A stretch of DNA of 23,896 bases, the filler included, from an uncultured virus (IMG/VR IMGVR_UViG_2124908030_000002) (Duplodnaviria > Heunggongvirae > Uroviricota > Caudoviricetes > Thumleimavirales > Hafunaviridae). It is 4 parts of one record of this genome, joined end to end, with 100 filler letters (N's around TTAATTAATTAA, not from the genome) between each part and the next. Parts side by side here need not be neighbours in the genome. Positions count along the whole stretch, not along the records: positions 2,890 to 22,705 come from IMGVR_UViG_2124908030_000002; 3 more parts are not named here. The stretch is one strand, 5' to 3'. This document shows positions 3,191-23,484 of this stretch, one piece after another. The notes under the pieces were generated by a model that was given only the letters and a program-made list of their open reading frames with translations, was not told the DNA's origin and did not search any database. The position numbers and the translations under genes are program-made. Positions within the stretch are counted from its first letter, which is position 1. The number at the start of each line of letters is the position of its first letter.

Positions 3191-3197
3191 CCCACCG

Positions 3198-6194: not shown

Positions 6195-6221
6195 ACTGTC
6201 TTGCTCTTGTGATTCCCATTA

Positions 6222-6289
6222 AGTCATAGGCTCTTCAGGGGAAGGGCGACTAGCTCCCTCCCGAGGGGCGCGGCGCCCCTTTCGCCCGT
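6222..6289 (-). ncRNA. type II hammerhead ribozyme A
   Basis: GGGC-GAAA-GGGGCG(CCG)CGCCCC-UC^-GGGAGGG(AGCUAGUCGC)CCUUCCC-CUGAAGA-GCCU-AUGACU; complete core; predicted cut at 6263/6262. Confidence 0.92.
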
Positions 6290-6462
6290 NNNNNNNNNNN
6301 NNNNNNNNNGTGGCTGACGTTACTTCAGCCCATCTACACTCTTCACGGAAGATTGCCGCTCCGTCTTCCATGATTGGGCTGTCTTCTGTTGGCCTCCACT
6401 CGTGGTCGTGAGTGTTTATCGGGTCGGGGTCTGGCGGGGAAGTCGGCGGCCCCGAGAATCCT

Positions 6463-6690
6463 CTACGTCCCATCATCTATCACATCGACCGGAAGAACAG
6501 TCCCCCCGATAGTTGATTCCACACCAGTATCGTACTCGTACTGTACCTCGATGCTGCCGTTACGAGCTAGGTGAATGAACCGAAGCTCTGTAACACTACC
6601 TTCTGTCCGGTCTGCGTCTTTGACTACGTGCCGTTCACCGCTGTTCAGTTGGCGCACTATCTTTTGTCTCCGTGGTTTGTTCTCGTTCAT
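6463..6690 (-). CDS. hypothetical protein (variant of 5283-5510)
   Basis: Two amino-acid differences from copy 1. Confidence 0.75.
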   Translation of the reverse strand: MNENKPRRQKIVRQLNSGERHVVKDADRTEGSVTELRFIHLARNGSIEVQYEYDTGVESTIGGTVLPVDVIDDGT

Positions 6691-7100
6691 TTGATGTAAT
6701 CCCGAAGGTTCTCAAGTCCCGCTTCTCCAAGCCCCGACACGTCCAGCAGCTCGTCGTCTTCGGCCTGCTGGATGTCGAGCTTCGTCTCGAAGCCGTTGCG
6801 ATGAAGCTTGTACGCGGTCTTCTTACCCACGAACTTCACCTCTGACCACTCTTCCGTCTCGGCGTCTATCAGGTCGAGGTCGGAGTCGGGAAGATGCTCG
6901 AAGTAGCCGGCTTCCACCTGATTCTCGAAGGCTTCTCGCTGCTCTATCCGGTGGGCGTTGCCGGACTTGCGGCCCGTAGTGTCGCTTCGGAGCAACACAA
7001 CTCCCTCGTAAGCGAAGAGAATCTGGTACATCTCTCCGCGAGCCTCGTGCTTGTAAATCTGTCCAACTGCGGGTTCAACTGTGGAGTCTAGCTCACTCAT
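6687..7100 (-). CDS. helix-hairpin-helix domain protein (copy 2)
   Basis: Same protein as 5507-5920, synonymous SNPs only. Confidence 0.75.
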   Translation of the reverse strand: MSELDSTVEPAVGQIYKHEARGEMYQILFAYEGVVLLRSDTTGRKSGNAHRIEQREAFENQVEAGYFEHLPDSDLDLIDAETEEWSEVKFVGKKTAYKLHRNGFETKLDIQQAEDDELLDVSGLGEAGLENLRDYIK

Positions 7101-7423
7101 GAATCAAAGTCTACGTACTCTGCTTTGTCTGTGGTTATTTTGGTCCCCGTTTTTCGGACTTCGACTGTCTCTTCTACCTCTCGCGTCGAGAATGGCTTGA
7201 AGAAGACAGCAATAACTCCTTCATCTGTGAGCTTGTTTTCTGGCTGGACTGCTGAAATGAGGAACCCACACTCTAGAGCCTCTGCTCCGAGAGAGTGATG
7301 ATGGGGGAACCCATCTTCAGCAAACTCGATACAGCAACAAGTTCGGGTTCTAGTATCTTCTACCACAGTTCCGGACTGGTTCTCGAACGTATCTACCAGC
7401 TCGTAAAATTTTGATTTATTCAT
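7097..7423 (-). CDS. hypothetical protein (108 aa), present only in copy 2
   Basis: ORF overlaps both neighbours; more AT-rich codons. Confidence 0.75.
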   Translation of the reverse strand: MNKSKFYELVDTFENQSGTVVEDTRTRTCCCIEFAEDGFPHHHSLGAEALECGFLISAVQPENKLTDEGVIAVFFKPFSTREVEETVEVRKTGTKITTDKAEYVDFDS

Positions 7424-7535
7424 CTCTTACCTCGTCTGCTGTCTTCTTCCCATCAACCACGTCAGCAAGCGTTCCAAGATACTCAACGACAGCACGGTTC
7501 TCCGCTTCGTCCTGCTTGGTGTGCTTACGCATCTC
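7416..7535 (-). CDS. 3' part of the 93-aa protein (copy 2; 5' end in gap)
   Basis: EMRKHTKQ...EVRDE identical to 5913-6194. Confidence 0.75.
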   Translation of the reverse strand, partial: EMRKHTKQDEAENRAVVEYLGTLADVVDGKKTADEVRDE

Positions 7536-7555
7536 NNNNNNNNNNNNNNNNNNNN

Positions 7556-8289
7556 ACCTCGTCTTCGAGGTCCACATCCCCGACGTGACGGATGGTCTTC
7601 TTCTCGGTGATGCTCCTGATGGAGTTGTCACACCGGGTGTCCTGAGCGAAGCCCTCGAAGTACAGGGCTTGCGACCCGAAGAAGTCGTAGCCGGTCCTGA
7701 TACCGAGAACGAGCGGGTCGGTGCCGCTGTCGTCGTCGGTGTAGTCGATGTTGAAGGCATCGAAGAGGATGTCCATGTGGACTTCCCCGCCGCCCTTGTA
7801 CTGCCGAATCTCCCCGAACACATCGTCGCCGTAACCCTCGTCACGGATGGCCTCTTCGAGCGGTTCGTAGGCCGTCATGGGGTTGACGATGCTGTACGAC
7901 TTGCTCGGGACGTGCCAGAGCGCATCTTCGTTCGGAGTGTCGTCGGGGTTCAGCCACTCCCGAAGCTTGTCGGGGGAGTAGATGGACTGGAAGCGGTCAG
8001 TCTCAACGAAGACCGTCCGGTCGTTGACCCGGTGAAAGTCCACCCCGTCAGGTGCCCGGTTCCGAAGCGGCCCGTCGTTCAGGTTTTGGGCCACGTCTTC
8101 CGGCATCTTCCACGCGAGGCCGCCCTGCTCGGCCTGTTCTAACTCTCGAATCGCCGCTGCCATCGAGGTGTCGGGAGGGTTCTCGGCATCCATCCCGGCG
8201 ATGCTGGCCGCTGTGTCACCCATCTCGGTGTTGTTATGGGTGGTCAATCCTGCGAACTGCGTCGTCGTGTCGGCGGTGTTCTGGCGCAT
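7556..8289 (-). CDS. DUF932/DUF945-like phage protein (3' truncated by gap)
   Basis: PSKSYSIVNP, GYDFFGS and C-x-N...IRHVG pattern typical of the family. Confidence 0.6.
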
Positions 8290-8330
8290 GGTGTGTCTCG
8301 TTTTATATCATGGCGTCGAGGTGACGCTGA

Positions 8331-8371
8331 AAGGGCGGAGAGGAATCGAACCTCTCGGAACCACTCACCCT
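8331..8371 (-). ncRNA. mini-tRNA (t-element) 1
   Basis: AGGGUG-AGUGGUUCC-GAGAGG(UUCGAUU)CCUCUC-CGCCCU: 6-bp acceptor plus 6-bp T-stem with canonical T-loop; no D or anticodon arm. Confidence 0.8.
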
Positions 8372-8391
8372 AACATTCAAAGCCCTACGCC

Positions 8392-8619
8392 TTAAGTCTT
8401 TTCAGTATCAATCTCTTCGGGCAGAGGTATGATACCTCGCTCGTCGTAGTAGTCTAGGACTTTCAGAAGGTCTTCTTTGAAACGGTCTGATATGTACCCC
8501 TTGCCTAGTGCGTTGGAGAACGAACTTGCTGCTCGCCCGGAGCAGACAGAGAGGTTAGACTGTTTTATCCCTCGTTCCATTCTCATCTCGTCAATTTCTT
8601 CGATTGACTTGTCAGTCAT
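8392..8619 (-). CDS. XRE-like helix-turn-helix protein
   Basis: MRMERGIKQSNLSVCSGRAASSFSNALGKG fits an XRE/Cro HTH pattern. Confidence 0.65.
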   Translation of the reverse strand: MTDKSIEEIDEMRMERGIKQSNLSVCSGRAASSFSNALGKGYISDRFKEDLLKVLDYYDERGIIPLPEEIDTEKT

Positions 8620-9171
8620 CAGAGCGGAGGTACTTCTCTACCTCGGCGTCGTTCAGGGTTTGCTGGCCTCCGTCCGTCGCTGCCAGACGCTCACCCTGAT
8701 GGCTACCGTCGTAGTCATCGGCTACGTCAGCACTCTCGAAGACCATCTGTGCTATCGGATACCGTTCGGGGAACCGGACAGGGTTGACTGCCGAAGGAAC
8801 CCGGAGTAGCCCTTCGCCGTAGCCCTCGTAGCCTTGGTCCCACAGGGCAGAAGTAAGGTGGAGGCCGCACCGCATCAGTCGGGACCGGGGGTAGACCCTG
8901 CCGACGTACCCTTCGGGAATCTCTATCTTCTCGGCGTAGACGATGGGGTACGGCCCTTGAGGGAGCCGGTAGAAGCCGGTGTCTTTCGGCACAACCCTCG
9001 TTCTGTCCGGCTTCGAGTAGCCAAACTCCGTGAACCGGGCTGTCCTGACGACCGGAAGACTTCTCCAATTGTCAGGTCCACACCGTTCGGCTGAATCTGC
9101 TCTTCAGGGATGTCTCCGTCGTTCAGATGCTCTGCTACTAGACTGCCGGATGCTACTGCGTTGTCACTCAT
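8612..9171 (-). CDS. dcd: dCTP deaminase / trimeric dUTPase family protein (1-nt frameshift near 9040)
   Basis: QIQPNGVDLTI in one frame; PRSRLMRCGL, WDQGYEG and PIAQMVF in another; adding one base at GGACAG^CCC joins them. Confidence 0.9.
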
Positions 9172-9182
9172 TTTTGTGAATC

Positions 9183-9605
9183 CTACTGCGCGTTTATCCA
9201 GTCACTATACGTCGGGAACTTGTCTTCAAACCGCTCCTGATACGACTCGTTCAGGGCATGAATCTCGTCCAGTTCGTCACTCGACCAGCGGCCCGATTCG
9301 AGGGCCGGCCCTCGGTGGTGGAGGTGAGGCCACCCTGTCACGATGACTCGGTGTCCGTCTTCGTGGAAGCCGGCAACAAGGTAGTAGGCAACCCCCTTGC
9401 CCCATACCTTCCGGAAGCAAGCACACCCATCTCCGTTGTCACGGAGGTCGCCGTGATTGATGGTTTCCCTGATAACTTCCGGGGTCAGGTATCGCTCCGG
9501 TTCCTTCATCCGCTGAATGAAGTGTCGGAGTGGTGTGTAGAGTTGCGGCTGTTGTGGGTAATCGATGTCTCGGTACTCCCGGCTCCGGTCGATGGGAAGG
9601 TTCAT
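9183..9605 (-). CDS. DUF4258-like protein
   Basis: HFIQRMKE..RYLTPEVIRETINHG and HRVIVTGW. Confidence 0.55.
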   Translation of the reverse strand: MNLPIDRSREYRDIDYPQQPQLYTPLRHFIQRMKEPERYLTPEVIRETINHGDLRDNGDGCACFRKVWGKGVAYYLVAGFHEDGHRVIVTGWPHLHHRGPALESGRWSSDELDEIHALNESYQERFEDKFPTYSDWINAQ

Positions 9606-9614
9606 GGCATCATC

Positions 9615-9878
9615 TTAGTCCTGCGAGATGACCGTCGCTCCGGGGTCGAACATGGCTCGTCCGATGAGGAACTGCGCGACCTTATAGCCGTCAACTTCTC
9701 CGGGGGAGAAGTAAACGAGAGAGTCAACGCTCTTGACTGTCCCGTCGTCGTACTCAATCCTCGCAACTTCCGGCGTCTCCTTCAGCTCCGTGTTCGGATT
9801 GTTTGAAGGAGAAGTCGTGTCGATGTGGACCGTAGACCGGGTGTCGTACCACATCGAGAGGTGACTGACTTCAGCCAT
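9615..9878 (-). CDS. hypothetical protein (87 aa)
   Basis: Acidic ORF with TGATG overlap. Confidence 0.7.
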   Translation of the reverse strand: MAEVSHLSMWYDTRSTVHIDTTSPSNNPNTELKETPEVARIEYDDGTVKSVDSLVYFSPGEVDGYKVAQFLIGRAMFDPGATVISQD

Positions 9879-10390
9879 CAGTTGGCACCTCCCACATAAT
9901 GGGAAACTGAACTTTGGGCAATCCCAAGGACGTTACTAATCTCGGTCTGAGGTAGGTCTTCGTTGTGGTAAAGTTCCATCATCAATAGCTCGTCGGTGAA
10001 GGTCGTTTTCTTTTGATGGTGCGCCCGGTGTTCACCCTCTCCCATCAGCTTGATGTTCGAGGGGCGGTTGTCCCACGGAAGCTCGTTCTGGTGGTGAACA
10101 TCTTTGCCCACTACTGCGTCGAACCCAAACTCACAGACCGCAAGAAGCCTGTGGTGGAAAAAATGGCTGCCGTCAACGTTGAACATCTCGTACCCATCAC
10201 TACTGACATGAAGGGACGGGTGGCCGTACTGGTTGCGAGCAGCTTCCTTCGGACTGCGGGTTTCGACCCCTGCGTCAGCCATCCACCGGGCAACGGTCTT
10301 GCTGACCACATCGCATTTTTCACCGATTTCTGCTTGTGTCATCCCTTCGTCATGGTACAGCCGACGAAGCTCCGACTCTTCAAGAGGCAT
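9878..10390 (-). CDS. HNH homing-type endonuclease with flanking HTH motifs
   Basis: HHRLLA...DVHHQNELPWDNRPSNI...EHRAHH; HTH-like segments at both ends (MTQAEIGEKCDV; LPQTEISNVLGIAQSSVS). Confidence 0.88.
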   Translation of the reverse strand: MPLEESELRRLYHDEGMTQAEIGEKCDVVSKTVARWMADAGVETRSPKEAARNQYGHPSLHVSSDGYEMFNVDGSHFFHHRLLAVCEFGFDAVVGKDVHHQNELPWDNRPSNIKLMGEGEHRAHHQKKTTFTDELLMMELYHNEDLPQTEISNVLGIAQSSVSHYVGGAN

Positions 10391-10521
10391 TACTCTTCAC
10401 CCCCCTGTCGCCAACTCACCGCTGAGTAGAATCTACCCATTATAGCACCGAGGTCGTCAGTTTCGTATGTTTGGCGCAACGTCTCAACGTGTCCGTCATC
10501 GCTAAATTCTACTGATTCCAT
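10390..10521 (-). CDS. hypothetical protein (43 aa)
   Basis: MESVEFSDDG...; TAATG overlap with the HNH gene; first ATG after hammerhead B. Confidence 0.6.
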   Translation of the reverse strand: MESVEFSDDGHVETLRQTYETDDLGAIMGRFYSAVSWRQGGEE

Positions 10522-10538
10522 GATGTCTTTGGTCTGAA

Positions 10539-10606
10539 CGGTCTGGCTCGTCAGGGAGATGGCGACCAGCACACCTCCGACGAGGGGCGACCCCTCGTTT
10601 CGCCGT
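10539..10606 (-). ncRNA. type II hammerhead ribozyme B
   Basis: GGC-GAAA-CGAGGGG(UCG)CCCCUCG-UC^-GGAGGUG(UGCUGGUCGC)CAUCUCC-CUGACGA-GCC-AGACCG; predicted cut at 10579/10578. Confidence 0.92.
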
Positions 10607-10631
10607 TGACTTGAAGCTCGGGCTTTGAGTC

Positions 10632-11546
10632 CTAGTCCTGAATCTCAGCCTCGATACTGTCGCGGTTCTCACCGATAACCCGGCGCGTCTCCTGAGCTAT
10701 CGGGGCAGAGTTGGCTGCGTCCTCGATGTCTTCTCGTAGGTAGAAGAACTCCTGAATGGCTTCTACGGCTTCGTCACCAGCGAGGGCCGGGGCGGAGACA
10801 CCATGCTCGTCAGCCACCGTCGAGATGGCTGAGAGGACGGTGCTACCGTCGCTGAACAGGGTCCAGACACGCTGAAGAACATCGGGGGAGACACGGGACA
10901 GAGCATCGAAGTCGTCACCGTGGAACACATCTGCTGCGATGTAGGGGAAGAAGTCCATCAGCATGGCCAGCTCGTTCACTCCGCAGTGACAATAGGGGCA
11001 GAAGTCCATCTGGTCGGCGAAGGCATCGGTCACGTCGAAGCCGGCTCGGATGTCGTGCTTGTGGTCAGGGTGGGAGTGACCGAGGCCGCACTCTTCAACC
11101 GGACACTCGAACCGGGAGACTCGGGTGTCGCTGACAACGGAACGAGCATCCTGAAGCACGTCCATCACGTCGTCGTCAATCTCCGAGTCGATGTCACCCA
11201 TGACCCCATCGATGGAGTCCACGAGGTTCTGGCTGTTCTCGGACTGAAGCGCGCTGTGGCTGCCGAGCGTCCACATCGAACCCACGGTGTCGAAGCTGTT
11301 GGTGTCGTCCTGTGCGTCGTCGTCGGCGGCGATGAAGTCGTAGTTCATGTTGGTGGTGTCGTCGTCGCTGTCTTCCGCACTGTTCTCGTCGTGTCTCGTT
11401 CTGAAGACTGTTTCTGAAAGGTAATGTCGCTCCTCGATGGAGTAGGCCACGTTGTTTGACCGAAGGGCGGCGGCCACCTCTTTGTGGTCAAACACGTCAA
11501 TCAACTCACCAGTATGCCGGTTAACTACCTTGTATTCCGTTGGCAT
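10632..11546 (-). CDS. acidic Cys/His-rich hypothetical protein (304 aa)
   Basis: CPVEECGLGHSHPDHKH and CPYCHC clusters. Confidence 0.8.
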   Translation of the reverse strand: MPTEYKVVNRHTGELIDVFDHKEVAAALRSNNVAYSIEERHYLSETVFRTRHDENSAEDSDDDTTNMNYDFIAADDDAQDDTNSFDTVGSMWTLGSHSALQSENSQNLVDSIDGVMGDIDSEIDDDVMDVLQDARSVVSDTRVSRFECPVEECGLGHSHPDHKHDIRAGFDVTDAFADQMDFCPYCHCGVNELAMLMDFFPYIAADVFHGDDFDALSRVSPDVLQRVWTLFSDGSTVLSAISTVADEHGVSAPALAGDEAVEAIQEFFYLREDIEDAANSAPIAQETRRVIGENRDSIEAEIQD

Positions 11547-11592
11547 GGGTTGTGTCCCGTCACTTGTATCGTTGCGCCACGGGGGGCGCTGA

Positions 11593-11634
11593 TGGCTAGG
11601 AGAGGAATCGAACCCCTCGCTGCCCTGTCTAGCT
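11593..11634 (-). ncRNA. mini-tRNA (t-element) 2
   Basis: AGCUAG-ACAGGGCAGC-GAGGGG(UUCGAUU)CCUCUC-CUAGCC-A; acceptor stem covaries relative to element 1. Confidence 0.8.
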
Positions 11635-11662
11635 AAAGACTAGAGGCCGAGTCACTTAAGTC

Positions 11663-11902
11663 TTATTTATTACGCCGGAGCTTAATCCGTTCCGGAATAT
11701 CTTTCTCGACTTTTTTCGGCTTTACTACGACGTGCCAACCTCCAATTAGAAGGCGTTGTCTTTCTCCGCCCTGCCACTCAAGCCCGTCGTTTTGGAACAG
11801 GTGTTCACCGGCCCGCTTCGCTTGTTCTTTGGTCGCAAAGATGTGATTATAACGTACTCTGTGCTTTCCGTCTTCTTTGTAGGTAAGTTCCCAAAGTTCC
11901 AT
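11663..11902 (-). CDS. hypothetical basic protein (79 aa)
   Basis: MELWELTYKE...; ATG 2 nt after the upstream stop. Confidence 0.7.
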   Translation of the reverse strand: MELWELTYKEDGKHRVRYNHIFATKEQAKRAGEHLFQNDGLEWQGGERQRLLIGGWHVVVKPKKVEKDIPERIKLRRNK

Positions 11903-11904
11903 GT

Positions 11905-12782: not shown

Positions 12783-15573
12783 GACACTCCTCCTTTGTCA
12801 GCTCTGATGGGTCGATGCCTTTCTCGTGGAAGCCGAGAAGCATCTGGCCTGTCCATGTATCTCGGCGGTGGTTATCATCGAACAAATCGTACACGTCGCT
12901 GTCGTCATCCCAATTTGGGGTGTCAGCCATCAGCCGGTAGCGTTTCGAGCTGCCTTCCAGATGACCATCTTTGAGCGACGGCTTGTGGTTGGGACTGTAG
13001 CGAGTCAACCGTGCGATGATGATGCTTGCCTGATGTATCCTTGACCCCACACCGTCCGTCTTGATGTTCTTGAAGGCCCACCGCGCTCTTTTCAGCACTT
13101 TGTCACAGACAACAGCGAAGAGGGTGTCGTGCTTGTCGTCGTCGGGAACGTTGCCTTTGTCGTCGCTACGGTAGCCGCCGTCGTAGTCATCGAGTAGTTT
13201 GGCCCACTCAATCTGGTCACGGAAGTCTTCGGCGTAGAAGTTCCGGAGCTTTTCAAAGTCATCTCCGAGCAGCTTCACTACTTCGCGGTCATCACTCGGC
13301 CGGTGAGCCATAACCACCATCCGGTCGTCGTCGTACAGCTCTTCAGGAGTCATGGCACCGTCTTCTGTGGCTATTAGTGCTGACGAGGACCACTCGGTGT
13401 ATTCCATGTAAGTGACTACATCATCATAGTCTTCAAGCTCGGACAGTTGAGACTTTGTGACGCAGACAATAGCGGCGTAGTATGCCATGTCGTAGTGGTC
13501 GCTGATGTTCGGGCCGTCGCCCTGAGTGAAGACCATCAACGTGTCTTTGCCGTGGAAGTTGCCGTGCCCTTCCAGCTTTCGCTTCACCTCTTTCATGGTG
13601 AGCCGCTGGTCGATGGAGCTACTATCGGAGCTGGTGCGGAGCTTCAGCTTGTCCGGGTCTTTCTTCTTCGTTGTCTTCGTGTGCTTCTGGTGGATGTCGT
13701 TCGGAACATCCCAACTGTGGTCGTCGTCCTGCTTGACAGGAACGTTCTTCACGACGTTGAAACCGAAGGCATCACCCCAAGCATCGTACTTGCTGGCACC
13801 GTTGATTTTGATTACCTCTGCGTCAGGGTTGTTGTGGCGAAGGACTTTGAAGCGGTCGGTGAAGTTACCGCCTGTCGAAGCTGCCATGTAGACGTTATCG
13901 CAGTCTTCTATGTCTGTCAGGAACGCCCCTAGTCTCTTACTCTTCCGGTTCCGACTGCTGCTAGACCGACCGGGGCCGTTGTAGCAGTACTCAATTTCTG
14001 AGAACAGAGCGTACATCTGGTTCAGAGTATCGTCAGATGTTACGTCGAAGTGGTCGTCGCCTGAGATGAAGTTACGGAACTTCCTTCGTTTTTCTGTCGC
14101 CTTGTACGGGCCGTGCTTTGACACCATCTTCGAGAAGATTTTCCACGAGCTTCTGTCACCGATAAGGGCGCTGCCGGGGTGACTGCCCGACTTCATCTCT
14201 TCTACGACAGCCCGGAGCTGTTTCTTCTCTTCTTCGATGGCCAACGACTGAACGTACTCGAAGAACTGTTTCTGCTCGGAGTCTTTCTTCAGGCTGTCAC
14301 GGGAGCCGGTAGGCTGCGGGAGCATCACGTCGTCGTCGTGTAGCTCCCCGATGACGTTGTTTTTCTCGTTCGTCTCGAAGAGTCGCTGTCCGTCAGAGTA
14401 CCGGCCCCGGTTCGGCCCGTGAACAATCCGGCCTTGTTCGTCCTGAATCTGAATCACTTCGTCCCACAGGGTGCTGAACCGGACTGATGTGTTCCGGTCA
14501 ATAGCCATCGACACCATGAAGGTGTCTTCGTCGTCGGCATGGTAGCCGGTGTCAATAACATCAGGACCGGAGACGAGGGAAAACTCACCGGGACGCTCAA
14601 CCACAATCGGTGGGTCGCCGTACTCTTCAACGAAGTTGCTGGCCTCGTACTCTTCTTCGACCGGGGTGGTCCCGGCGTCGTGTTCTCGGTAGAGAAGCGG
14701 GACACGAAGTTGCTCGGTGTAGTCTTCGACCCATGACTGAAGCTTCGAGAGACTGAACGAATCTTGAACCGGCATCGAGAACCGGGTGCCGTAGAAGTTT
14801 TCTTCTACCTCACCACAGAGTGCGTTAGCACCACCGAGGTAGGAGTAAGCCCGGAAGCCGGGGTGGTCGCCGGGCTGCCGGCTTCGGGTGTCAATTTCTG
14901 CTCCGGCTCCATGCTTGCCGTGAACTAGGGCCGACGACTCTGAACCGATACCGAACATCCCACCGGAGCCGCCGTCAACACCGGAGCCGGACTGGAAGAT
15001 GGTGTTGAAGGCGTCGTCAAACTGTGCCGGGGTCATGCCGATGCCGTTGTCTTCGGTGACTATCTTCCGCTCATCGAGGTACACATCCCACACTATCGTC
15101 GGGTCGTAACCGAGGTTCCGTGAAGCTTCAAGGACTTCATCGATGGGCCGGGGAATCTCTATCCGGCGGAAGTCTGACGGGTCGCTGTCGCCATCATCGA
15201 GCGCGTTCTCGGCGACAGTCTCCCCGGTTTCAGCATCGACCAGAAGGCTCTGTGTGAGCCACCCGTCGTCGTACCGTTCGGAGAGCTGAATCAGGAGCTT
15301 CGAGGCTCGGAAGCAGGCAGCTTCCTCGTTCTGAAGCCACTCTCGAACCCATGCCGAGTCATGCTCGTAGATGAAGTCAGACAGGAACTCTCCGGCACCG
15401 CTCTCTGTCTGTGTCTTCAGGGCTTCGTCACCCGTCTCTTGAACGAGAGGGTGGTCTTCGCCAGCCACACCGAGCTGCTTCACGTCGTTGGTGTCGGGGC
15501 CTGAAAGGACAGGGGGAACGGAAGGGTCACGGCTCTGTTCGTCGGTCGTCGGAAGGTCGATGTTCTCACTCAT
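12769..15573 (-). CDS. GHKL (Hsp90/MutL-type) ATPase-domain protein, rIIA-like architecture
   Basis: Bergerat-fold motifs REWLQN, EDNGIGM, GGMFGIG and GTRF in the N-terminal third, followed by a long unassigned C-terminal region. Confidence 0.85.
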   Translation of the reverse strand: MSENIDLPTTDEQSRDPSVPPVLSGPDTNDVKQLGVAGEDHPLVQETGDEALKTQTESGAGEFLSDFIYEHDSAWVREWLQNEEAACFRASKLLIQLSERYDDGWLTQSLLVDAETGETVAENALDDGDSDPSDFRRIEIPRPIDEVLEASRNLGYDPTIVWDVYLDERKIVTEDNGIGMTPAQFDDAFNTIFQSGSGVDGGSGGMFGIGSESSALVHGKHGAGAEIDTRSRQPGDHPGFRAYSYLGGANALCGEVEENFYGTRFSMPVQDSFSLSKLQSWVEDYTEQLRVPLLYREHDAGTTPVEEEYEASNFVEEYGDPPIVVERPGEFSLVSGPDVIDTGYHADDEDTFMVSMAIDRNTSVRFSTLWDEVIQIQDEQGRIVHGPNRGRYSDGQRLFETNEKNNVIGELHDDDVMLPQPTGSRDSLKKDSEQKQFFEYVQSLAIEEEKKQLRAVVEEMKSGSHPGSALIGDRSSWKIFSKMVSKHGPYKATEKRRKFRNFISGDDHFDVTSDDTLNQMYALFSEIEYCYNGPGRSSSSRNRKSKRLGAFLTDIEDCDNVYMAASTGGNFTDRFKVLRHNNPDAEVIKINGASKYDAWGDAFGFNVVKNVPVKQDDDHSWDVPNDIHQKHTKTTKKKDPDKLKLRTSSDSSSIDQRLTMKEVKRKLEGHGNFHGKDTLMVFTQGDGPNISDHYDMAYYAAIVCVTKSQLSELEDYDDVVTYMEYTEWSSSALIATEDGAMTPEELYDDDRMVVMAHRPSDDREVVKLLGDDFEKLRNFYAEDFRDQIEWAKLLDDYDGGYRSDDKGNVPDDDKHDTLFAVVCDKVLKRARWAFKNIKTDGVGSRIHQASIIIARLTRYSPNHKPSLKDGHLEGSSKRYRLMADTPNWDDDSDVYDLFDDNHRRDTWTGQMLLGFHEKGIDPSELTKEECRDFL

Positions 15574-15713
15574 CTGAGGTCAACAAGGTCGGTTGTTTTC
15601 ATGTCGCTGCTGATGAAGGCTCTCGGGTTGCCTTCTTCCTGAACGCTGTATCTGCTCGAATACTCACTCCACGTTACTTGTGGGGACAGCTCTGGTGGGT
15701 TCTCTTCGTTCAT
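15570..15713 (-). CDS. hypothetical protein (47 aa)
   Basis: MNEENPPELSPQVTWSEY...; ATGA overlaps at both ends; conserved in copy 2. Confidence 0.7.
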   Translation of the reverse strand: MNEENPPELSPQVTWSEYSSRYSVQEEGNPRAFISSDMKTTDLVDLR

Positions 15714-16232
15714 ATTCCGTAGTCTATCGCCGGGTTGTCTTCTATACACCGTCTTGTGNNNNNNNNNNNNNNNNNNNNNNNNNNNNNNNNNNNNNNNNNN
15801 NNNNNNNNNNNNNNNNNNNNNNNNNNNNNNNNNNNNNNNNNNNNNNNNNNNNNNNNNNNNNNNNNNNNNNNNNNNNNNNNNNNNNNNNNNNNNNNNNNNN
15901 NNNNNNNNNNNNNNNNNNNNNNNNNNNNNNNNNNNNNNNNNNNNNNNNNNNNNNNNNNNNNNNNNNNNNNNNNNNNNNNNNNNNNNNNNNNNNNNNNNNN
16001 NNNNNNNNNNNNNNNNNNNNNNNNNNNNNNNNNNNNNNNNNNNNNNNNNNNNNNNNNNNNNNNNNNNNNNNNNNNNNNNNNNNNNNNNNNNNNNNNNNNN
16101 NNNNNNNNNNNNNNNNNNNNNNNNNNNNNNNNNNNNNNNNNNNNNNNNNNNNNNNNNNNNNNNNNNNNNNNNNNNNNNNNNNNNNNNNNNNNNNNNNNNN
16201 NNNNNNNNNNNNNNNNNNNNNNNNNNNNNNNN

Positions 16233-16903
16233 CCCGGAGCCATGCTTGCCGTGAACGAGGGCTGCGACTCTGAGCAGACACCGAACATCCCACCGGAGCC
16301 ACCGTCAACACCGGAGCCAGAGCTGAAGATGGTGTTGAAGGCTTCGTCAAACTCACGAGGAGTCATGCCGATGCCGTTGTCTTCGGTGACTATCTTCCGC
16401 TCATCGAGGTACACATCCCACACTATCGTCGGGTCGTAACCGAGGTTTCGTGAGGCTTCGAGGACTTCATCGATGGGCCGGGGAATCTCTATCTGGCGGA
16501 AGTCTGACGGGTCGCTGTCGCCATCATCGAGCGCGTTCTCGGCGACAGTCTCCCCGGTTTCAGCATCGACCAGAAGGCTCTGTGTGAGCCACCCGTCGTC
16601 GTACCTCTCGGAGAGCTGAATCAGGAGCTTCGAGGCTCGGAAGCAAGCAGATTCCTCGTTCTGAAGCCACTCTCGAACCCATGCCGAGTCATGCTCGTAG
16701 ATGAAGTCAGCCAGAAACTCTCCGGCACCGCTCTCTGTCTGAGTCTTCAGGGCTTCGTCACCCGTCTCTTGAACGAGGGGGTGGTCTTCGCCAGCCACAC
16801 CGAGCTGCTTCACGTCGTTGGTGTCGGGGCCTGAAAGGACTGGGGGAGCGGAATGGTCACGGCTCTGTTCGTCGGTCGTCGGAAGGTCGATGTTCTCACT
16901 CAT
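16233..16903 (-). CDS. GHKL ATPase protein, second variant (3' part in gap)
   Basis: Near-identical to 14903-15573 (offset 1330), with synonymous and a few non-synonymous changes. Confidence 0.85.
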
Positions 16904-17040
16904 CTGAGGTCAACAAGGTCGGTTGTTTTCATGTCGCTGCTGATGAAGGCTCTCGGGTTGCCTTCCTCCTGAACGCTGTATCTGCTCGAATACTCACTCC
17001 ACGTTACTTGTGGGGACAACTCTGGGGTTTCTTCTGTCAT
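16900..17040 (-). CDS. hypothetical protein (46 aa; variant of 15570-15713)
   Basis: MTEETPELSPQVTWSEY...; its ATG lies in the 3' tail of hammerhead C. Confidence 0.7.
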   Translation of the reverse strand: MTEETPELSPQVTWSEYSSRYSVQEEGNPRAFISSDMKTTDLVDLR

Positions 17041-17097
17041 GCTCATCAGGGAAGGGACGACACTCCCTCCCGACAGGGCCGGTCCCTGTTTCGCCAT
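17035..17097 (-). ncRNA. type II hammerhead ribozyme C
   Basis: AUGGC-GAAA-CAGGG(ACCGG)CCCUG-UC^-GGGAGGGA(GUGUCG)UCCCUUCC-CUGAUGA-GC-AUGACA; predicted cut at 17072/17071. Confidence 0.92.
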
Positions 17098-17181
17098 TTA
17101 GGGACTTTTCCCCATTATGACATACTTTTCTTCGTTTTCTTCCATCACTTCCTTTGAAAGTCTAAGAAATCTCTTGTTCAT
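17098..17181 (-). CDS. putative 27-aa peptide
   Basis: MNKRFLRLSKEVMEENEEKYVIMGKSP*; TGATG overlap upstream; stop directly abuts hammerhead C. Confidence 0.45.
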   Translation of the reverse strand: MNKRFLRLSKEVMEENEEKYVIMGKSP

Positions 17182-17690
17182 CAAATCCCTAACGCTGAAG
17201 CCTGCTCTTCTTCATCTACGACCCACTCTTCATCTTCCACATCGAGAACCCGGCCAGTCTCGAAGACAACTTCAGTCTCGTCTCGGACTTCGGTGATGCC
17301 GTAGATGCTTTCTTCTTCACCTTTGATGTAGGTCTTAAGTGAAGTAACATCAAGACTTTCATCACAACTCGGAGTGGTACACTTTGCCCGGCCTTTGGCG
17401 TAGCAACTGGTGTCGTTGATAAGAAGCCCCGACCTCGTTCTGATGGCCTCGATGTGACGGTAGTGCTTCAGCTTCCCTCTGCCATCAGGGTACTGAAGCC
17501 CGACGAGGTTCTTCGTTGAGGTGTAGAGCTTCACCGCATCCCCTGAAGTTGAGTGAGTTGGAAGGGCACCGTCTCCCCATTTCCGAGCAACTTCAGGTTG
17601 GTTCCCTGTTGCGCTGCTTACTTCATGATACACATCTGCCGGGTACTCTTCACCGTTCTCTGCTTGAATCGTACTTTGTTGTAGACTCAT
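17181..17690 (-). CDS. hypothetical protein (169 aa)
   Basis: Acidic ORF preceded by GGAGG. Confidence 0.8.
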   Translation of the reverse strand: MSLQQSTIQAENGEEYPADVYHEVSSATGNQPEVARKWGDGALPTHSTSGDAVKLYTSTKNLVGLQYPDGRGKLKHYRHIEAIRTRSGLLINDTSCYAKGRAKCTTPSCDESLDVTSLKTYIKGEEESIYGITEVRDETEVVFETGRVLDVEDEEWVVDEEEQASALGI

Positions 17691-17901
17691 CGTAGCCTCC
17701 GTATAACATCAGCAACTACCAACACTATCCTTTCAACCATAGTAGGGACGAGGGGGTTCTCGGTTTCAGCTTCTTCATTAACCGCATTAGGTTCATCCCT
17801 ATTGCTGTTATGTTGTATATATTATTACAACTATTGTTTGAACTACCATCGTCTATACTACCTTCTGTTTCCGTATCGATGAAGTCGTATGAATCGTTCA
17901 T
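17687..17901 (-). pseudogene. small AT-rich gene with a 2-nt frameshift in an (AT)n run
   Basis: Removing one AT near 17820 gives a 70-aa acidic ORF with ATGA overlaps at both ends. Confidence 0.55.
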
Positions 17902-18116
17902 TTTTCCACCAGAAGAACAAACTCTCCTTGGGTGCTGGCATGGGACTTTCCGGCCCACTTGAAATCATCCCTGAAGTGTTCAAGCCACGTCACTCTGATG
18001 TGCTGGACTCCGTTGTATGGGGCCGGAATGACGTAGTAGTCGATACCGGGAATGTCGGACTCTCTAACCGCAGCGATACCATCGAACTGTCGTAGTTCTT
18101 CAACAGGCTCACTCAT
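17898..18116 (-). CDS. hypothetical protein (72 aa)
   Basis: MSEPVEELR...; coupled start. Confidence 0.7.
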   Translation of the reverse strand: MSEPVEELRQFDGIAAVRESDIPGIDYYVIPAPYNGVQHIRVTWLEHFRDDFKWAGKSHASTQGEFVLLVEK

Positions 18117-18285
18117 TTTCTTCAGCCTCCTCTGCCGCAATCTCCACCAGCTCCTTCAGTTCATCCTGAGCATCTTCGAGCCGCTGAAGCTCTTCTCGTG
18201 GAAGGGAGTTCCACAAGATGGACAGCCCTTCGATGTATTCGTTCCACCGTTCTTCAAATTCTTCGCGGTTATCTGCTTGGGGCAT
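18109..18285 (-). CDS. hypothetical acidic helical protein (58 aa)
   Basis: MPQADNREE...; TAATG overlap. Confidence 0.7.
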   Translation of the reverse strand: MPQADNREEFEERWNEYIEGLSILWNSLPREELQRLEDAQDELKELVEIAAEEAEENE

Positions 18286-18806
18286 TAGAATCCTTCTCCG
18301 TCGATGTTTGCCATCCGCTGCGACTCTGTTTGCCACTCGCTCCGTGACTGAACCATCCTACTTCCTCCGTTAATGTTAGTGAAGGTGAAGGTCAGGGCCT
18401 CCATGTTAGTTTCTTCATCGTCCATCATCGGCCCTCCGTCAGCTTCTCCCCAAGCAATCTTTATGCCGTTCTCGTCTCCGGTAAGGCTGAACAGCTCCGC
18501 GAAAGCCATGAAGTTTGATGCTTCAGTCCACGTCAGGAAGAAGTGGTCGATGCCCACACTTCGCCGGTCCTTTGTTGTCTTCGTCATACGAACACCGTAG
18601 ATGGTGGTCTTGACTCTGGCGTTGACGTTTTCCTCGGGGTTCTCGGGTTCAACCGAGAAGTAGCAGCGAAGCGTCTGGTTCTCTGCGTCGTGAACCAGAT
18701 GGATGTAGTCACCGACGCCCTCTGATTCGAGGTTGACCCACTCACTAAGCGGGACTCTATCTACTACGTTATGCCCGTCGTCTTCGGCGTTCATGGTTTC
18801 ACTCAT
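18285..18806 (-). CDS. hypothetical protein (173 aa)
   Basis: MSETMNAED...; first gene after orphan RNA motif copy 1. Confidence 0.8.
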   Translation of the reverse strand: MSETMNAEDDGHNVVDRVPLSEWVNLESEGVGDYIHLVHDAENQTLRCYFSVEPENPEENVNARVKTTIYGVRMTKTTKDRRSVGIDHFFLTWTEASNFMAFAELFSLTGDENGIKIAWGEADGGPMMDDEETNMEALTFTFTNINGGSRMVQSRSEWQTESQRMANIDGEGF

Positions 18807-18825
18807 GGTTTCTCCGTTCCGCTGT

Positions 18826-18882
18826 CGCACCGCAGAGGGTAGTTCGGTCATGAGCCGAGGGGTCGTCAACCACCTACCCTAA
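18826..18882 (-). ncRNA. unassigned repeated structured RNA motif, copy 1
   Basis: AGGGUAG-GUGG(UUGACGA)CCC-CUCGG(CUCAUGA)CCGAA-CUACCCU-CUGCGGUGCG; homologous to 20712-20769. Confidence 0.7.
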
Positions 18883-18900
18883 CAATAGAAGCCTGTTGAC

Positions 18901-19086
18901 TTAACTCTTTGCTATCGCCTCGGAGGGGAACGCCGACCAGACCGCCGAGTTGGGGGCCTCGACCACCTTCCCGGTGTCTTTCAGTCGGATTTCGTAGTCT
19001 CTGCCGGACGACACGACCTCTCCCTCATGGGTCCCATCACCGGGAAGGTCAACGTAACAGAAGTCACCCTCTACGGGTCGAATCAT
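18901..19086 (-). CDS. small beta-rich hypothetical protein (61 aa)
   Basis: ATGA overlap and GGAGG upstream. Confidence 0.7.
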   Translation of the reverse strand: MIRPVEGDFCYVDLPGDGTHEGEVVSSGRDYEIRLKDTGKVVEAPNSAVWSAFPSEAIAKS

Positions 19087-19277
19087 CGTCGCCGCCCTCC
19101 CTTCAGCTCGTTGTCGTCGCCTAGCTCACAGTTAGAACAGATGAAGGCATCCAGTCCGTGGTCGTAGACATGGACCGTTCGGCCCCTACATCTTCGGCAC
19201 TCTCGCCGCTTCTCTTTGTGCTTCGGTGACTTGTCGAGTCGGTTCCGTCGTGTGACTTCAGGTCCTTCGTAGCTCAT
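19083..19277 (-). CDS. small basic zinc-ribbon protein (64 aa)
   Basis: CRRC...CSNC; ATGA overlap. Confidence 0.7.
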   Translation of the reverse strand: MSYEGPEVTRRNRLDKSPKHKEKRRECRRCRGRTVHVYDHGLDAFICSNCELGDDNELKGGRRR

Positions 19278-19861
19278 AGTTTTTCGCTGTAACAGCTTGC
19301 TCCGCAGCACTTCGACTGGTATCGCTCTGCCTTCTTCACCATCTTCGACCGCTTCATCTTGCCAGCAACCTTCTGGTCGCACCCTGAACAGAAGATTCCG
19401 TACTTGTGTTCCGTGAACTGCTGGCAGTTGACGGTGGTGTCTGCCTTCTCTGCCATCCGCTTGAAGCCTTCACCGTGGTCGCCTTCTCCGGTTTCCTGAT
19501 ACTGCCTGATGTGGATTAGCTCATGCCGGATGGTGCTTCGCATCTTATCCGACCATCCCCACTTCTCATAGGCTCTGTAAGCGAACCTGACGAAGTATTT
19601 CGTCGCCGTTGAACGCTTCATGCCGGCCTTCCCTGCGGCTCGCTTCAGCTGGCTGGACTGCTCGAAGGTCACGGTATCAAGCTCCACCGGCTTCAGGACT
19701 TCGTAGTTCTTGATGGCCCACTCAGCATACTCACGGCAGGCCACCCTGAACTGGTTCGGAGCCAGCTCGTCGCAGAAGGTGGGACACCCGGAACGCCCCG
19801 TGTCTTCATCCTTCTCTTCTTCAGGCCTCGCTGCTTCGAGGAATCGTTCGAGGTCTTCCAT
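19274..19861 (-). CDS. SprT-like zinc metalloprotease
   Basis: TIRHELIH (HExxH), GDHGEGFK, upstream RAAGKAG and C-terminal CSGC...KCCG. Confidence 0.85.
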   Translation of the reverse strand: MEDLERFLEAARPEEEKDEDTGRSGCPTFCDELAPNQFRVACREYAEWAIKNYEVLKPVELDTVTFEQSSQLKRAAGKAGMKRSTATKYFVRFAYRAYEKWGWSDKMRSTIRHELIHIRQYQETGEGDHGEGFKRMAEKADTTVNCQQFTEHKYGIFCSGCDQKVAGKMKRSKMVKKAERYQSKCCGASCYSEKL

Positions 19862-20073
19862 CAGATGTTCTTCGGGATACCATGAGCATCATACATCCCG
19901 TTGTCTTCGGCGTGTTCATCGTTCGGCCGGTTCTCGTTGTCCGGCTCGGGGCGGTCCACTTTGCCATGACGCCGTTCGAGGGTCTGGCCTGTGGTTCCCT
20001 CTCGTTGTGCTGTATCGACTTCATACTGCCAGAAGTCTCCGTTGTTCGTGAGGTCTTCGGGGTTGTCAGGCAT
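19861..20073 (-). CDS. hypothetical protein (70 aa)
   Basis: Acidic ORF with TGATG overlap. Confidence 0.7.
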   Translation of the reverse strand: MPDNPEDLTNNGDFWQYEVDTAQREGTTGQTLERRHGKVDRPEPDNENRPNDEHAEDNGMYDAHGIPKNI

Positions 20074-20074
20074 C

Positions 20075-20242
20075 TTAGTGTTGGCTGGCAGGTCGTTCTT
20101 CAGTTGGGACTCTGCTGAACTCGTCTCCGCCGCAGTCGGGGCACTCTAGGCTGATGTGACCACCGGGCATCCTCAGTTCGACCATCTCGTCACTTGTAAG
20201 GTCGATGCGACACTTCCGGCAGTTGAATAGGTTTTCACTCAT
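20075..20242 (-). CDS. CPxCG zinc-finger protein (55 aa)
   Basis: CRKC...CPDCGG. Confidence 0.8.
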   Translation of the reverse strand: MSENLFNCRKCRIDLTSDEMVELRMPGGHISLECPDCGGDEFSRVPTEERPASQH

Positions 20243-20399
20243 CTTCAGTAACTCCCGCGAACTTCGTTCTCTCACAGTCGGGGCACTTGTGGCGACCCTG
20301 ACTCTCGGTTAGTTCGACCAGCGTAGTGTCGTCAATCGGTCCTTCCCAACCACAGGGGATACACCGAACGACTAGGGTAGGGGCTTCGTCACTCATCAT
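20235..20399 (-). CDS. zinc-finger protein (54 aa, not in ORF track)
   Basis: MMSDEAPTLVVRCIPCGWEG...HKCPDCER...DE*; GAGGTG upstream. Confidence 0.75.
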   Translation of the reverse strand: MMSDEAPTLVVRCIPCGWEGPIDDTTLVELTESQGRHKCPDCERTKFAGVTEDE

Positions 20400-20499
20400 C
20401 GTTCTCCACCTCGTTCCCCCACTTCGTTTCGTCCCGCTTCTCCTGAAGTTCTCGCTCCTGTACCTCTTCGATGATGTCTTCGATGGTGTCTCCGTTCAT
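20389..20499 (-). CDS. small acidic protein (36 aa, not in ORF track)
   Basis: MNGDTIEDIIEEVQERELQEKRDETKWGNEVENDDE*; coupled at both ends. Confidence 0.65.
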   Translation of the reverse strand: MNGDTIEDIIEEVQERELQEKRDETKWGNEVENDDE

Positions 20500-20690
20500 G
20501 CTTCGTGGCTGAAGGTCGCCTTCTCTGAAGCCGTTACTGCCTTCGTCTCGTCTTCAGCTGCCGGGTCAGGACCGCCGAAGTCGGTGTTCGTGGAAGAAAA
20601 TTCGTCTTGTACCGAGAAGGCCGGGTCTTCCTCGTCCCGGTCATCGATGGGCTTCGCTACCGACAGGTCTTGCCGCCGTAGTTTTGACAT
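20496..20690 (-). CDS. hypothetical protein (64 aa)
   Basis: Strong Shine-Dalgarno-like GAGGTGA 6 nt upstream. Confidence 0.7.
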   Translation of the reverse strand: MSKLRRQDLSVAKPIDDRDEEDPAFSVQDEFSSTNTDFGGPDPAAEDETKAVTASEKATFSHEA

Positions 20691-20711
20691 TTCGTGTCAC
20701 CTCGAAGTCGC

Positions 20712-20769
20712 CGCACCGCAAGGGGTGATTCGGTCATGAGCCGAAGGGGTCGTTAGCCCTTCACCCTAA
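20712..20769 (-). ncRNA. unassigned repeated structured RNA motif, copy 2
   Basis: AGGGUGA-AGGG(CUAACGA)CCCC-UUCGG(CUCAUGA)CCGAA-UCACCCC-UUGCGGUGCG; closing stem covaries with copy 1. Confidence 0.7.
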
Positions 20770-20802
20770 GAGTCGATGCCTGAAGCCAAGAGTCTTACGA
20801 CT

Positions 20803-21996: not shown

Positions 21997-22008
21997 CGTT
22001 GTTCAGTT

Positions 22009-22705: not shown

Positions 22706-22749
22706 NNNNNNNNNNNNNNNNNNNNNNNNNNNNNNNNNNNNNNNNNNNN

Positions 22750-23475: not shown

Positions 23476-23484
23476 GCGCGCGCG

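Follow-up and report, generated by a model that had tools for sequence, protein, structure and literature searches.

Interchangeable hammerheads, mini-tRNAs and three-way-junction RNAs as candidate RNA end-defining signals in intergenic cassettes of Hafunaviridae-type haloarchaeal viruses

How is a long run of tightly packed viral genes converted into messenger RNAs, and what do the structured RNAs that punctuate such a run contribute? The question is raised by a stretch of DNA from the uncultured virus IMGVR_UViG_2124908030_000002, 23,896 nucleotides (nt) in length and hereafter called the window. Its run of minus-strand genes (3198-23793) belongs to a tailed haloarchaeal virus of Hafunaviridae-like type, and is interspersed with seven RNA elements, all of them on the sense (minus) strand: three type II hammerhead ribozymes, two mini-tRNAs, and two three-way-junction RNAs, referred to as orphans 1 and 2. 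The original prediction made from this DNA was that one long transcript is cut into modules at these elements. We find that the three classes replace one another in front of orthologous genes of related viruses. Our reading, to which we assign a probability of roughly 55%, is that the elements are interchangeable RNA end-defining signals in a conserved intergenic cassette of Hafunaviridae type, and that they are cut either by ribozyme action or by host enzymes. In transcription order, the elements are:

20705-20774, minus strand: three-way-junction element 1 (orphan 1); 89 bits with model R2, of which it is a seed copy.
18819-18887, minus strand: three-way-junction element 2 (orphan 2); 78.8 bits with model R2, likewise a seed copy.
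17033-17096, minus strand: type II hammerhead C; 38.4 bits with Rfam RF02276; predicted cut after C17072.
11587-11643, minus strand: mini-tRNA 1; 55.1 bits with model R1; acceptor GCUAG/CUAGC, G-rich linker, and T arm with GGUUCGAUUCC.
10537-10605, minus strand: type II hammerhead B; 32.5 bits with Rfam, and a pattern match; predicted cut after C10579.
8325-8380, minus strand: mini-tRNA 2; 45.4 bits with model R1; acceptor AGGGUG/CGCCCU and T arm with GGUUCGAUUCC.
6222-6289, minus strand: type II hammerhead A; core recognized by eye and by the strict pattern; 5' flank masked; predicted cut after C6263.

All seven lie within a single piece of the window (2890-22705). The original prediction had placed seven sense-strand elements of three classes at these sites, and motif scans, models R1 and R2 and, in part, Rfam agree with it.

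The virus was placed through its proteins. The 934-residue HSP90-like protein encoded at 12769-15573 is 36-37% identical to its homologues in HSTV-2, HRTV-7, HRTV-2, HRTV-11, HCTV-6 and HCTV-15, all of the genus Mincapvirus in the Hafunaviridae, and the PHROG families of the portal, the small terminase and several early proteins are consistent with this placement. Megablast against deposited phages gave no close DNA relative of the window, and a search of viral contigs with a single window protein gave no close relatives. Relatives were gathered with alignment A1, which combines the 304-residue protein encoded at 10632-11546 with its Mincapvirus homologues. This search returned five viral loci (L138-L142) and four metagenome pieces (L143-L146). 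Loci L138-L141 are four IMG/VR genomes of about 72 kb, with protein identities of 35-53%; L142 is HSTV-2 itself, and HF2 (AF222060) is L147.

The exchange of classes was read from tblastn searches with the genes that follow the window elements, together with inspection of the relatives' spacers. The gene after orphan 2 has an ortholog in L138 that is preceded by a hammerhead. The 304-residue gene has a mini-tRNA in front of it in the window, in L138-L141 and in L146, and an orphan variant with the loop UUCACGA in Mincapviruses and in L144. At the site downstream of this same gene, a hammerhead is found in the window (hammerhead B), in L138-L141 and in L143, and a mini-tRNA in Mincapviruses, L145 and L146. 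The gene for a DUF932 protein is preceded by a mini-tRNA in HRTV-7, and by the UUCACGA variant in HSTV-2, HRTV-11 and HCTV-6. Because the classes exchange in front of orthologous genes, all three would be expected to do one job; this is the strongest argument for the proposed reading. That is, hammerheads and tRNA-like elements appear to be functionally equivalent.

The hammerheads have intact cores. A strict ribozyme pattern matches exactly sites A, B and C in the window, and had no match in 100 shuffles. All three copies carry the catalytic core (C3-U4-G5-A6-N7-G8-A9, G12-A13-A14, A15.1-U16.1 and H17), in the form of CUGAAGA, CUGACGA or CUGAUGA together with GAAA and UC, and all have the topology of type II, with stems I and III capped and stem II open. 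MAFFT alignment A6 of the hammerheads was unsuitable for pair counting, and the copies were parsed by script instead. In the window, stem III has 5-7 bp and stem I has 7-8 bp (6 and 7 bp in A, 7 and 7 bp in B), while stem II pairs at four of four positions in A, three of four in B and two of four in C. A and B adopt the three-stem shape when folded to minimum energy. In hammerhead C, candidate start codons of the next open reading frame (ORF) are found in and after the CUGAUGAG core. The original prediction had pointed to Rfam as a check, and the result divides the three copies. Hammerhead C exceeds the gathering score of Hammerhead_II (RF02276; 38.4 bits against 37). Hammerhead B, with 32.5 bits, lies under gathering, and was detected only when 151 nt were searched alone. 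The Rfam search gave no Hammerhead_II match for hammerhead A, whose core is complete by eye (GCGAAA, stem III, UC, stem I, CUGAAGA and GCC).

Eleven further hammerheads of the same type occur in the relatives, ten in L138-L141 and L143 and one in HF2. The relatives' copies score 28-33.6 bits with Rfam, all under gathering; the type II model seems insensitive to the halovirus clade, missing most copies. In all 14 halovirus copies the loop of stem I could form a pseudoknot of 4-7 bp with the 3' tail, and its central pairs, as read from the parse output, covary consistently throughout, being GUC/GAC in nine copies and GCC/GGC in five. In seven of the 14 copies, all from relatives, A9 is followed by an additional U ahead of stem II; the window copies are canonical. 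Variant hammerheads of the relatives lie in L139 (at about 5315-5460 and at 10954-11032) and L141 (10952-11032): one has a hairpin of about 22 nt inserted between U4 and G5 of the core, and in two A9 is replaced. A scan of viral contigs with a generic hammerhead pattern returned more than 132 loci, nearly all in unrelated GC-rich phages, and the sole relevant one, L083, duplicates the L138 site. Among L002-L133, many GC-rich viral contigs (about 0.66) that are unrelated to haloviruses have two or three hammerheads of type II grouped in a few kb of sequence, as in the genomes of about 50 kb behind L019/L020, L024, L043/L044 and L054/L055. A link between the hammerheads and a viral RtcB ligase was considered and dropped: RtcB, which joins hammerhead-type ends, is found in HF2 but in only one of five relatives' genomes, and is not part of the system.

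Both mini-tRNAs have the make-up of a t-element, with an acceptor-like stem set on a T arm of 5-6 bp and a 7-nt loop, UUCRANY. The two share GGTTCGATTCCTCTCC, and none of 100 shuffles contained two matches to it. ARAGORN found no tRNA in the window, and the Rfam tRNA model had no match there even at E<=10; a cloverleaf with an anticodon arm was not recovered. The Rfam matches to snoZ122, mir-3158, CRISPR-DR20, sR43 and sR38 were far under gathering and were taken as chance. Model R1, built from 17 mini-tRNA copies anchored on the T loop, gave 29 matches at E<=1e-4 in 12 sources, and all 29 are on the gene-sense strand. Further mini-tRNAs are found genome-wide in the relatives, with several copies per genome. 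Among the matches beyond the seed are L140 9554 and, in HF2, a pair of mini-tRNAs absent from the annotation (2896-2952 and 4366-4421), both of which have a hairpin and a GUGACACCG-AUG leader behind them. Among 23 distinct rows, 81.3% of the cells are paired, against 53.5% in shuffles, and none of 500 shuffles reached this value. The T stem is 99.3% paired, and double-sided changes occur at 12 of 13 pairs; the acceptor stem covaries as well, but with some registers not resolved it is 65.8% paired. The T loop, GUUCRANUC, is invariant. The linker of 9-10 nt is G-rich and has one G conserved in at least 90% of copies, which may possibly stand in for the elbow-forming G18/G19 of the tRNA D loop.

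The sequence conservation of the loops and the linker exceeds what a bare cleavage signal would need. Together with the several copies per genome, it would suit an alternative in which the released mini-tRNAs and three-way junctions are the product, that is, small stable RNAs such as decoys for host tRNA-binding or tRNA-targeting factors, comparable to mascRNA from MALAT1, with the mRNA ends as a by-product. We consider this very unlikely, as a hammerhead fills the same slot and leaves no comparable small RNA, and the acceptor sequences are different at every site.

The three-way-junction RNAs fold into a P1 of 6 bp, a P2 in which GGG/CCC closes a loop of 7 nt, a P3 of 4-5 bp whose 7-nt loop reads YYCRNGA, and a tiny hairpin, UGC-GGU-GCR. 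In orphan 1 the three stems are GGGUGA/UCACCC, GGG-CUAACGA-CCC and UUCGG-CUCAUGA-CCGAA, followed by the mini hairpin UGC-GGU-GCG; in orphan 2, which is near-identical to orphan 1 in its core, P1 is GGGUAG/CUACCC. MAFFT alignment A5, of window and Mincapvirus orphans, was unsuitable for pair counting, and model R2 was therefore limited to four copies of the window type. Beyond these seeds, R2 matches L141 (44.9 bits) and G003 (48.6 bits). In the four seeds plus L141, 90.8% of the cells are paired, against 70.6% in shuffles, with none of 500 reaching 90.8%, and double-sided changes occur at six of six P1 pairs and two of four P3 pairs. The P3 loops of the class are CUCAUGA, UUCGUGA, UCCAUGA, UUCGAGA and UUCACGA. 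The variant found in Mincapviruses, L144 and L146 has the loop UUCACGA or UUCAUGA and a P2 loop of UAAGA; its stem covaries by eye (GAG/CUC and GGAG/CUCC), and R1 weakly matches one Mincapvirus copy (24.7 bits). Thus, the structural conservation in related viruses on which the original prediction depended is borne out, since all three classes are found in the relatives and their stems covary.

The 5' half of the orphans (GGGUGAA-GGG..CCC-CUUCGG) resembles that of the relatives' hammerheads (GGGCGAAA-GGGGG..CCCCC-UCGG). The idea that an orphan is a cryptic hammerhead was rejected, because the 5' half is similar but the CUGANGA core is absent. A bolder version of the proposed reading would hold that one promoter-proximal slot freely swaps a hammerhead, an acceptor/T-arm mimic for RNase P or tRNase Z, and a three-way-junction RNA derived from a hammerhead. 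The three-way junction would then represent either a novel type of substrate for an RNase or, with lower probability, a novel self-cleaving RNA. We put this version forward only tentatively, and would sooner expect it to be wrong in some part than right.

The elements also share their flanks, a feature that the original prediction had missed. A palindromic module of about 31 nt, TAAGACTYAAC-N-AGTCTTA, precedes most elements, and a small hairpin and a leader follow the tRNA-like ones. In the window, these features are:

20766-20797, minus strand: module before orphan 1 (TAAGACT...ACTCTTA+G); 6 of 7 arm pairs, 31-nt span.
18879-18910, minus strand: module before orphan 2; 5 of 7 arm pairs; contains the stop codon TAA of ORF 18901-19086.
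11633-11665, minus strand: module before mini-tRNA 1; 6 of 7 arm pairs; begins with the stop codon TAA of ORF 11663-12166.
10603-10634, minus strand: variant module TAGGACTCAA...AAGTCAAC before hammerhead B; 4 of 7 arm pairs; begins with the stop codon TAG of ORF 10632-11546.
8370-8401, minus strand: module before mini-tRNA 2, a weak palindrome; 4 of 7 arm pairs; contains the stop codon of ORF 8392-8619.
11544-11589, minus strand: hairpin GCGCC-CCCCGU-GGCGC and leader GACGGGACACAACCC-AUG after mini-tRNA 1; same architecture in relatives.
8287-8327, minus strand: hairpin GCGUC-ACCUC-GACGC and leader CGAGACACACC-AUG after mini-tRNA 2; from sequence inspection.

The module arms are complementary at five or more of seven positions, at a span of exactly 31 nt, in 13 of 20 cassettes, a level that random 32-mers attain in about 6% of cases; among the five readable cassettes of the window, three qualify. 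In the cassettes of mini-tRNA 1, mini-tRNA 2, orphan 2 and hammerhead B, the module encloses the stop codon that ends the upstream gene. The distance from module to element is 0-11 nt. In the lineage of the window, the tRNA-like elements begin at the G of TTAG/G, and a GGGYGAR-like start directly after TTAG is common to all three classes. A small GC hairpin and a GGGACACAACC-like leader, 0-12 nt before the AUG, follow the tRNA-like elements of the window and its relatives, and the same pair follows several of the relatives' hammerheads. The leader GGGACACAACC(UUCC) stands before start codons at 11544-11561 and 8287-8300 of the window and at many loci of the relatives; it is presumably unlike a Shine-Dalgarno sequence. 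A scan with the module pattern found 77 loci, four of which carry a mini-tRNA, all in genomes that were already known. The other loci look like chance matches, and the lineage appears to be rare in the collection that was scanned. As judged by its sequence, the palindromic module could act as promoter, as operator or as the hairpin in which the upstream mRNA ends, and it could combine more than one of these roles.

Where, then, would transcription start? The class I intergenic repeats of HF2 consist of alpha (CTAAAGACTTAGAA), beta/TATA and gamma (CGTCTnnTAGAG) motifs; their promoter activity and start sites were demonstrated by experiment, with the start at the G after TTAG (PMC8707807). The module of the window and its relatives begins with TAAGACTYAA or AAAGACTTAA, to be compared with CTAAAGACTTAGAA, and TAAGACTYAAC is accompanied by the gamma-type GTCT..TTAG/G. 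Like the HF2 repeats, the module is located between early or middle genes of the same virus family. The module differs from them in length, 31-33 nt as opposed to 56-58 bp (about 16 nt shorter in the window lineage), and in having no separate beta/TATA block (TCTTTAAGTC); its role as a promoter is putative. HF2 itself has the same short unit as the window module at 4344-4375, followed by a mini-tRNA, a hairpin and GGGUGACACCG-AUG. Overall, the module is homologous to the HF2 alpha and gamma motifs in five of the seven window spacers and in most spacers of the relatives. By analogy with the HF2 repeats, the elements may therefore coincide with a transcription start or lie only a few bases away from one. 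The accessible text of PMC8707807 is silent on RNA elements behind the repeats.

This homology bears directly on the original prediction, in which one long promoterless transcript spans the whole gene block and is cut by hammerheads and host tRNA enzymes. Several of its premises were upheld. In a mechanical ORF chain, from which the gene junctions were taken, the minus-strand genes are mostly coupled. The longer spacers do hold the elements: of 33 junctions inside the region, eight exceed 90 nt, two of these (20400-20495 and 7424-7524) proved to be coding or masked on inspection, and the remaining six contain six of the seven elements. The seventh, hammerhead A, adjoins a masked stretch of 20 N (6290-6309) inside a mechanically open ORF, which leaves no basis for assessing the spacer upstream of it. 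On the sense strand, runs of five or more T occur solely at 23485-23494, 10158-10163, 4459-4463, 3462-3466 and 3185-3190, and the seven element spacers contain none. The predicted oligo-T closes the run:

3185-3190, minus strand: oligo-T (T6) with which the run of minus-strand genes ends.

A promoterless transcript would also agree with the very long HF2 products obtained by reverse transcription-PCR (RT-PCR), and with the HF2 hammerhead, which has no intergenic repeat in front of it. Weighing against it are the alpha/gamma-like modules described above, since in HF2 these motifs belong to proven promoters or adjoin a mapped start upstream (PMC8707807), and the GGGYGAR-like start of all classes, which comes right after the TTAG that marks the HF2 start site. 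The original prediction had named primary starts in the spacers as evidence that would count against it, and the homology to promoter motifs suggests that such starts may exist. We therefore regard a single promoterless transcript as improbable. What survives of the original claim, besides the premises just named, is the apparent functional equivalence of the classes; the spacers themselves are most likely promoter-proximal RNA-processing cassettes, rather than punctuation of one promoterless transcript. Read-through into them is nonetheless likely, by analogy with HF2, in which RT-PCR detects transcripts of up to 35 kb as compared with Northern species of 0.5-9 kb, a difference that its authors ascribe to possible processing (PMC8707807).

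Could the tRNA-like elements instead be remnants of tRNA genes? The GenBank annotation of HF2 places true tRNAs after IR2 and IR3, ahead of coding genes, and hence in an equivalent post-promoter position; in the window, a partial attP-like tRNA is found on the other strand (3019-3029), and homing endonuclease genes lie near some cassettes. These facts would fit decayed tRNA genes, att-site fragments or mobile-element debris with no present RNA function. We give this idea hardly any credence, because compensatory changes keep both stems paired across viruses that are 35-53% identical in neighboring proteins, the strand bias is strict (29 of 29 matches in sense), and the elements have a fixed position within a conserved cassette.

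A number of observations weigh against the reading that we propose. The mapped HF2 5' end T-4384, which was read as a start site (PMC8707807), is the sole published 5' end near an HF2 mini-tRNA; it falls 9 nt inside the one at 4366-4421, and at neither the predicted RNase P nor the predicted tRNase Z position. Only one of the three window hammerheads, and no relative's copy, reaches the Rfam gathering score. The shuffle control of the pseudoknot, carried out per sequence, is not discriminating, since 35 to 348 of 500 shuffled tails do equally well. The covariation alignments A4 and A9 were fitted to their models. The P2 stem of the three-way junctions is invariant and shows no covariation within the window lineage, and the T-loop consensus is absent from this class. 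At two of the five window cassettes that could be read, the palindrome of the module is weak. Single-sequence folding energies are no better than those of shuffles (z from -0.03 to -1.69), and the case thus rests on core motifs and on comparative evidence, namely covariation. Finally, Holzle et al. in 2012 reportedly found that most other Haloferax tRNA-like elements are not cut in vitro.

Some of these observations would be explained if only the hammerheads were cut, and the tRNA-like elements were uncut structures of the 5' untranslated region, with roles in mRNA stabilization, binding of viral or host proteins, translational control or promoter-proximal regulation. The elements are at or next to the predicted transcription start, the HF2 5' end is inside a mini-tRNA and not at its edge, the conserved leader and palindrome suggest protein-binding sites, and a T-loop consensus is missing in the three-way-junction class. 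However, such structures trade places at orthologous sites with hammerheads whose catalytic cores are intact, which is hard to explain unless both serve one function. In addition, the invariant T loop and G-rich linker point to enzymes that read the tRNA elbow, and Haloferax is known to cut t-elements in vivo (PMC4326828). On balance, we think it unlikely that the tRNA-like elements remain uncut.

Our proposed model of the interchangeable signals is thus as follows. Each cassette would be ordered as a palindromic module, then a hammerhead, mini-tRNA or three-way junction within 0-11 nt, a small hairpin, a GGGACACAACC-like leader and the AUG. Part of the RNA would enter the cassette by read-through from upstream, because no terminators separate the genes, and other RNA would probably initiate at the cassette itself. 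The hammerheads are predicted to cut themselves after C17, and the tRNA-like elements would probably be cut by host RNase P, tRNase Z or both. The upstream message would then end in a hairpin, either the palindrome or hammerhead stem III, and the downstream message would start with a hairpin and the standard leader. Of this model, the analysis demonstrates the elements, their conserved structure, their position and strand, and their exchange at orthologous sites; the cuts, the enzymes acting on the tRNA-like classes and the start positions are what we infer.

Parts of this model have clear precedents. The hammerheads of haloviruses are already published and annotated. Specifically, Perreault et al. 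described in 2011 the hammerhead of HF1 and HF2, 13 nt before the helicase start codon, with a mapped 5' end at most 3 nt from the cleavage site, as well as intergenic hammerheads in phage and prophage operons, and tandem bacterial hammerheads that cut polycistronic RNA in vitro (PMC3088659). This HHphage hammerhead resembles those of the window in being of type II, in its loop/tail pseudoknot, in its sense-strand position just upstream of a start codon, and in its early-region location in a member of the Hafunaviridae. Unlike the window, which has three hammerheads with canonical cores, HF2 has a single one with an atypical core insertion. Furthermore, the window hammerheads share a cassette with two non-ribozyme classes that take their place at orthologous sites, an arrangement that the accessible part of PMC3088659 does not describe. 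As to the tRNA-like classes, Haloferax processes t-elements that flank an RNA in vivo, with RNase P and tRNase Z making the cuts, and a tRNA-like structure upstream of the Haloferax volcanii 5S rRNA is cut by tRNase Z (PMC4326828); t-elements are also carried by plant mitochondrial mRNAs (PMC1920247). The viral mini-tRNAs are likewise non-decoding tRNA-like structures that adjoin another RNA, with ends that would be made by tRNA-maturation enzymes, and haloarchaea, the host clade, are known to process t-elements. They differ in that they consist only of an acceptor stem, a 9-10-nt G-rich linker and a T arm, in that they lie in mRNA leaders beside a promoter-like module, and in that they are predicted substrates. 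The tRNA-like sequences that Dyall-Smith et al. detail, in the accessible part of their work, are an attP fragment, a deleted tRNA-Arg and an aberrant tRNA-Pro.

More generally, housekeeping RNases cut structured signals to give mRNA ends in mitochondrial tRNA punctuation, at the MALAT1/mascRNA 3' end and at the RNase III sites of T7. Each of these systems relies on one class of signal and one set of enzymes, whereas in the viral system a ribozyme and two tRNA mimics appear to be interchangeable, and are probably promoter-proximal. RiboJ (a ribozyme plus a hairpin) and tRNA-guide RNA (gRNA) arrays also place a cleaving unit after a promoter or between units, which yields a defined 5' end of the downstream RNA with a hairpin behind it; these insulators are engineered.

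The original prediction had considered the combined system to be undescribed. This stands as far as our literature search extends, which turned up no account of the mini-tRNAs, the three-way junctions, the cassette that the classes share or their exchange. It does not hold for the halovirus hammerhead and its mapped 5' end, published in 2011 (PMC3088659). The three-class interchangeable cassette builds on known operon hammerheads, t-elements and promoter-bearing intergenic repeats.

Other features of the window were noted in passing. Blocks of N44-TTAATTAATTAA-N44 at 1112-1211, 2790-2889 and 22706-22805 have stops in all six frames and are joiner-like, and the window is probably composed of four or more pieces; in the actual genome, the pieces with the terminase and the portal may lie apart from the run of early genes. 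Further runs of N, at 6290-6309, 7536-7555 and 15759-16232, are gaps or masked stretches. Regions similar to the HSP90 N terminus occur on the minus strand both in 12769-15573 and in 15710-16903, both matching phrog_23723; the latter is interrupted by 474 N and lies in a low-GC stretch (0.43-0.45), and may have arisen as a tandem paralogue or through faulty scaffolding. Behind hammerhead B, a small ORF is followed by a gene for an HNH endonuclease with HTH domains (9878-10390, minus strand); the relatives have no homologue at this site, and it is probably a free-standing homing endonuclease insertion. About 1.2 kb of hairpin-rich non-coding DNA (22336-23514, minus strand), possibly a genome end or early control region, includes a long inverted repeat (23343-23410) and, directly behind the first small gene, a T10 run (23485-23494). 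The T-loop motif GGTTCAAATCC at 3019-3029 (plus strand) is opposite to the gene run and near its end. It is also found just upstream of the Mincapvirus integrase (L001 5667-5677), and thus resembles a tRNA fragment of attP type; in the window itself, no gene for an integrase was seen.

If the bolder version of the proposed reading is correct, each gene module would receive the same hairpin-capped 5' and 3' ends, whether its RNA arrives by read-through or from a promoter of its own, and the cassette would be nature's equivalent of the synthetic insulators made with RiboJ or tRNAs. The swapping of classes is a natural experiment, which suggests that self-cleavage and cleavage by host tRNA enzymes are functionally equivalent. 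For haloarchaeal genetics, the cassettes are a source of compact, naturally occurring insulator parts. The finding bears on how archaeal viruses make defined mRNAs from long, terminator-less runs of genes. The authors of the HF2 study note the discrepancy between long RT-PCR products and short Northern species, and suggest processing without naming a mechanism in the accessible part of their paper (PMC8707807). The cassettes provide sequence-defined candidates for this processing, with predicted cut sites, in the cultured viruses HSTV-2, HRTV-7 and HF2.

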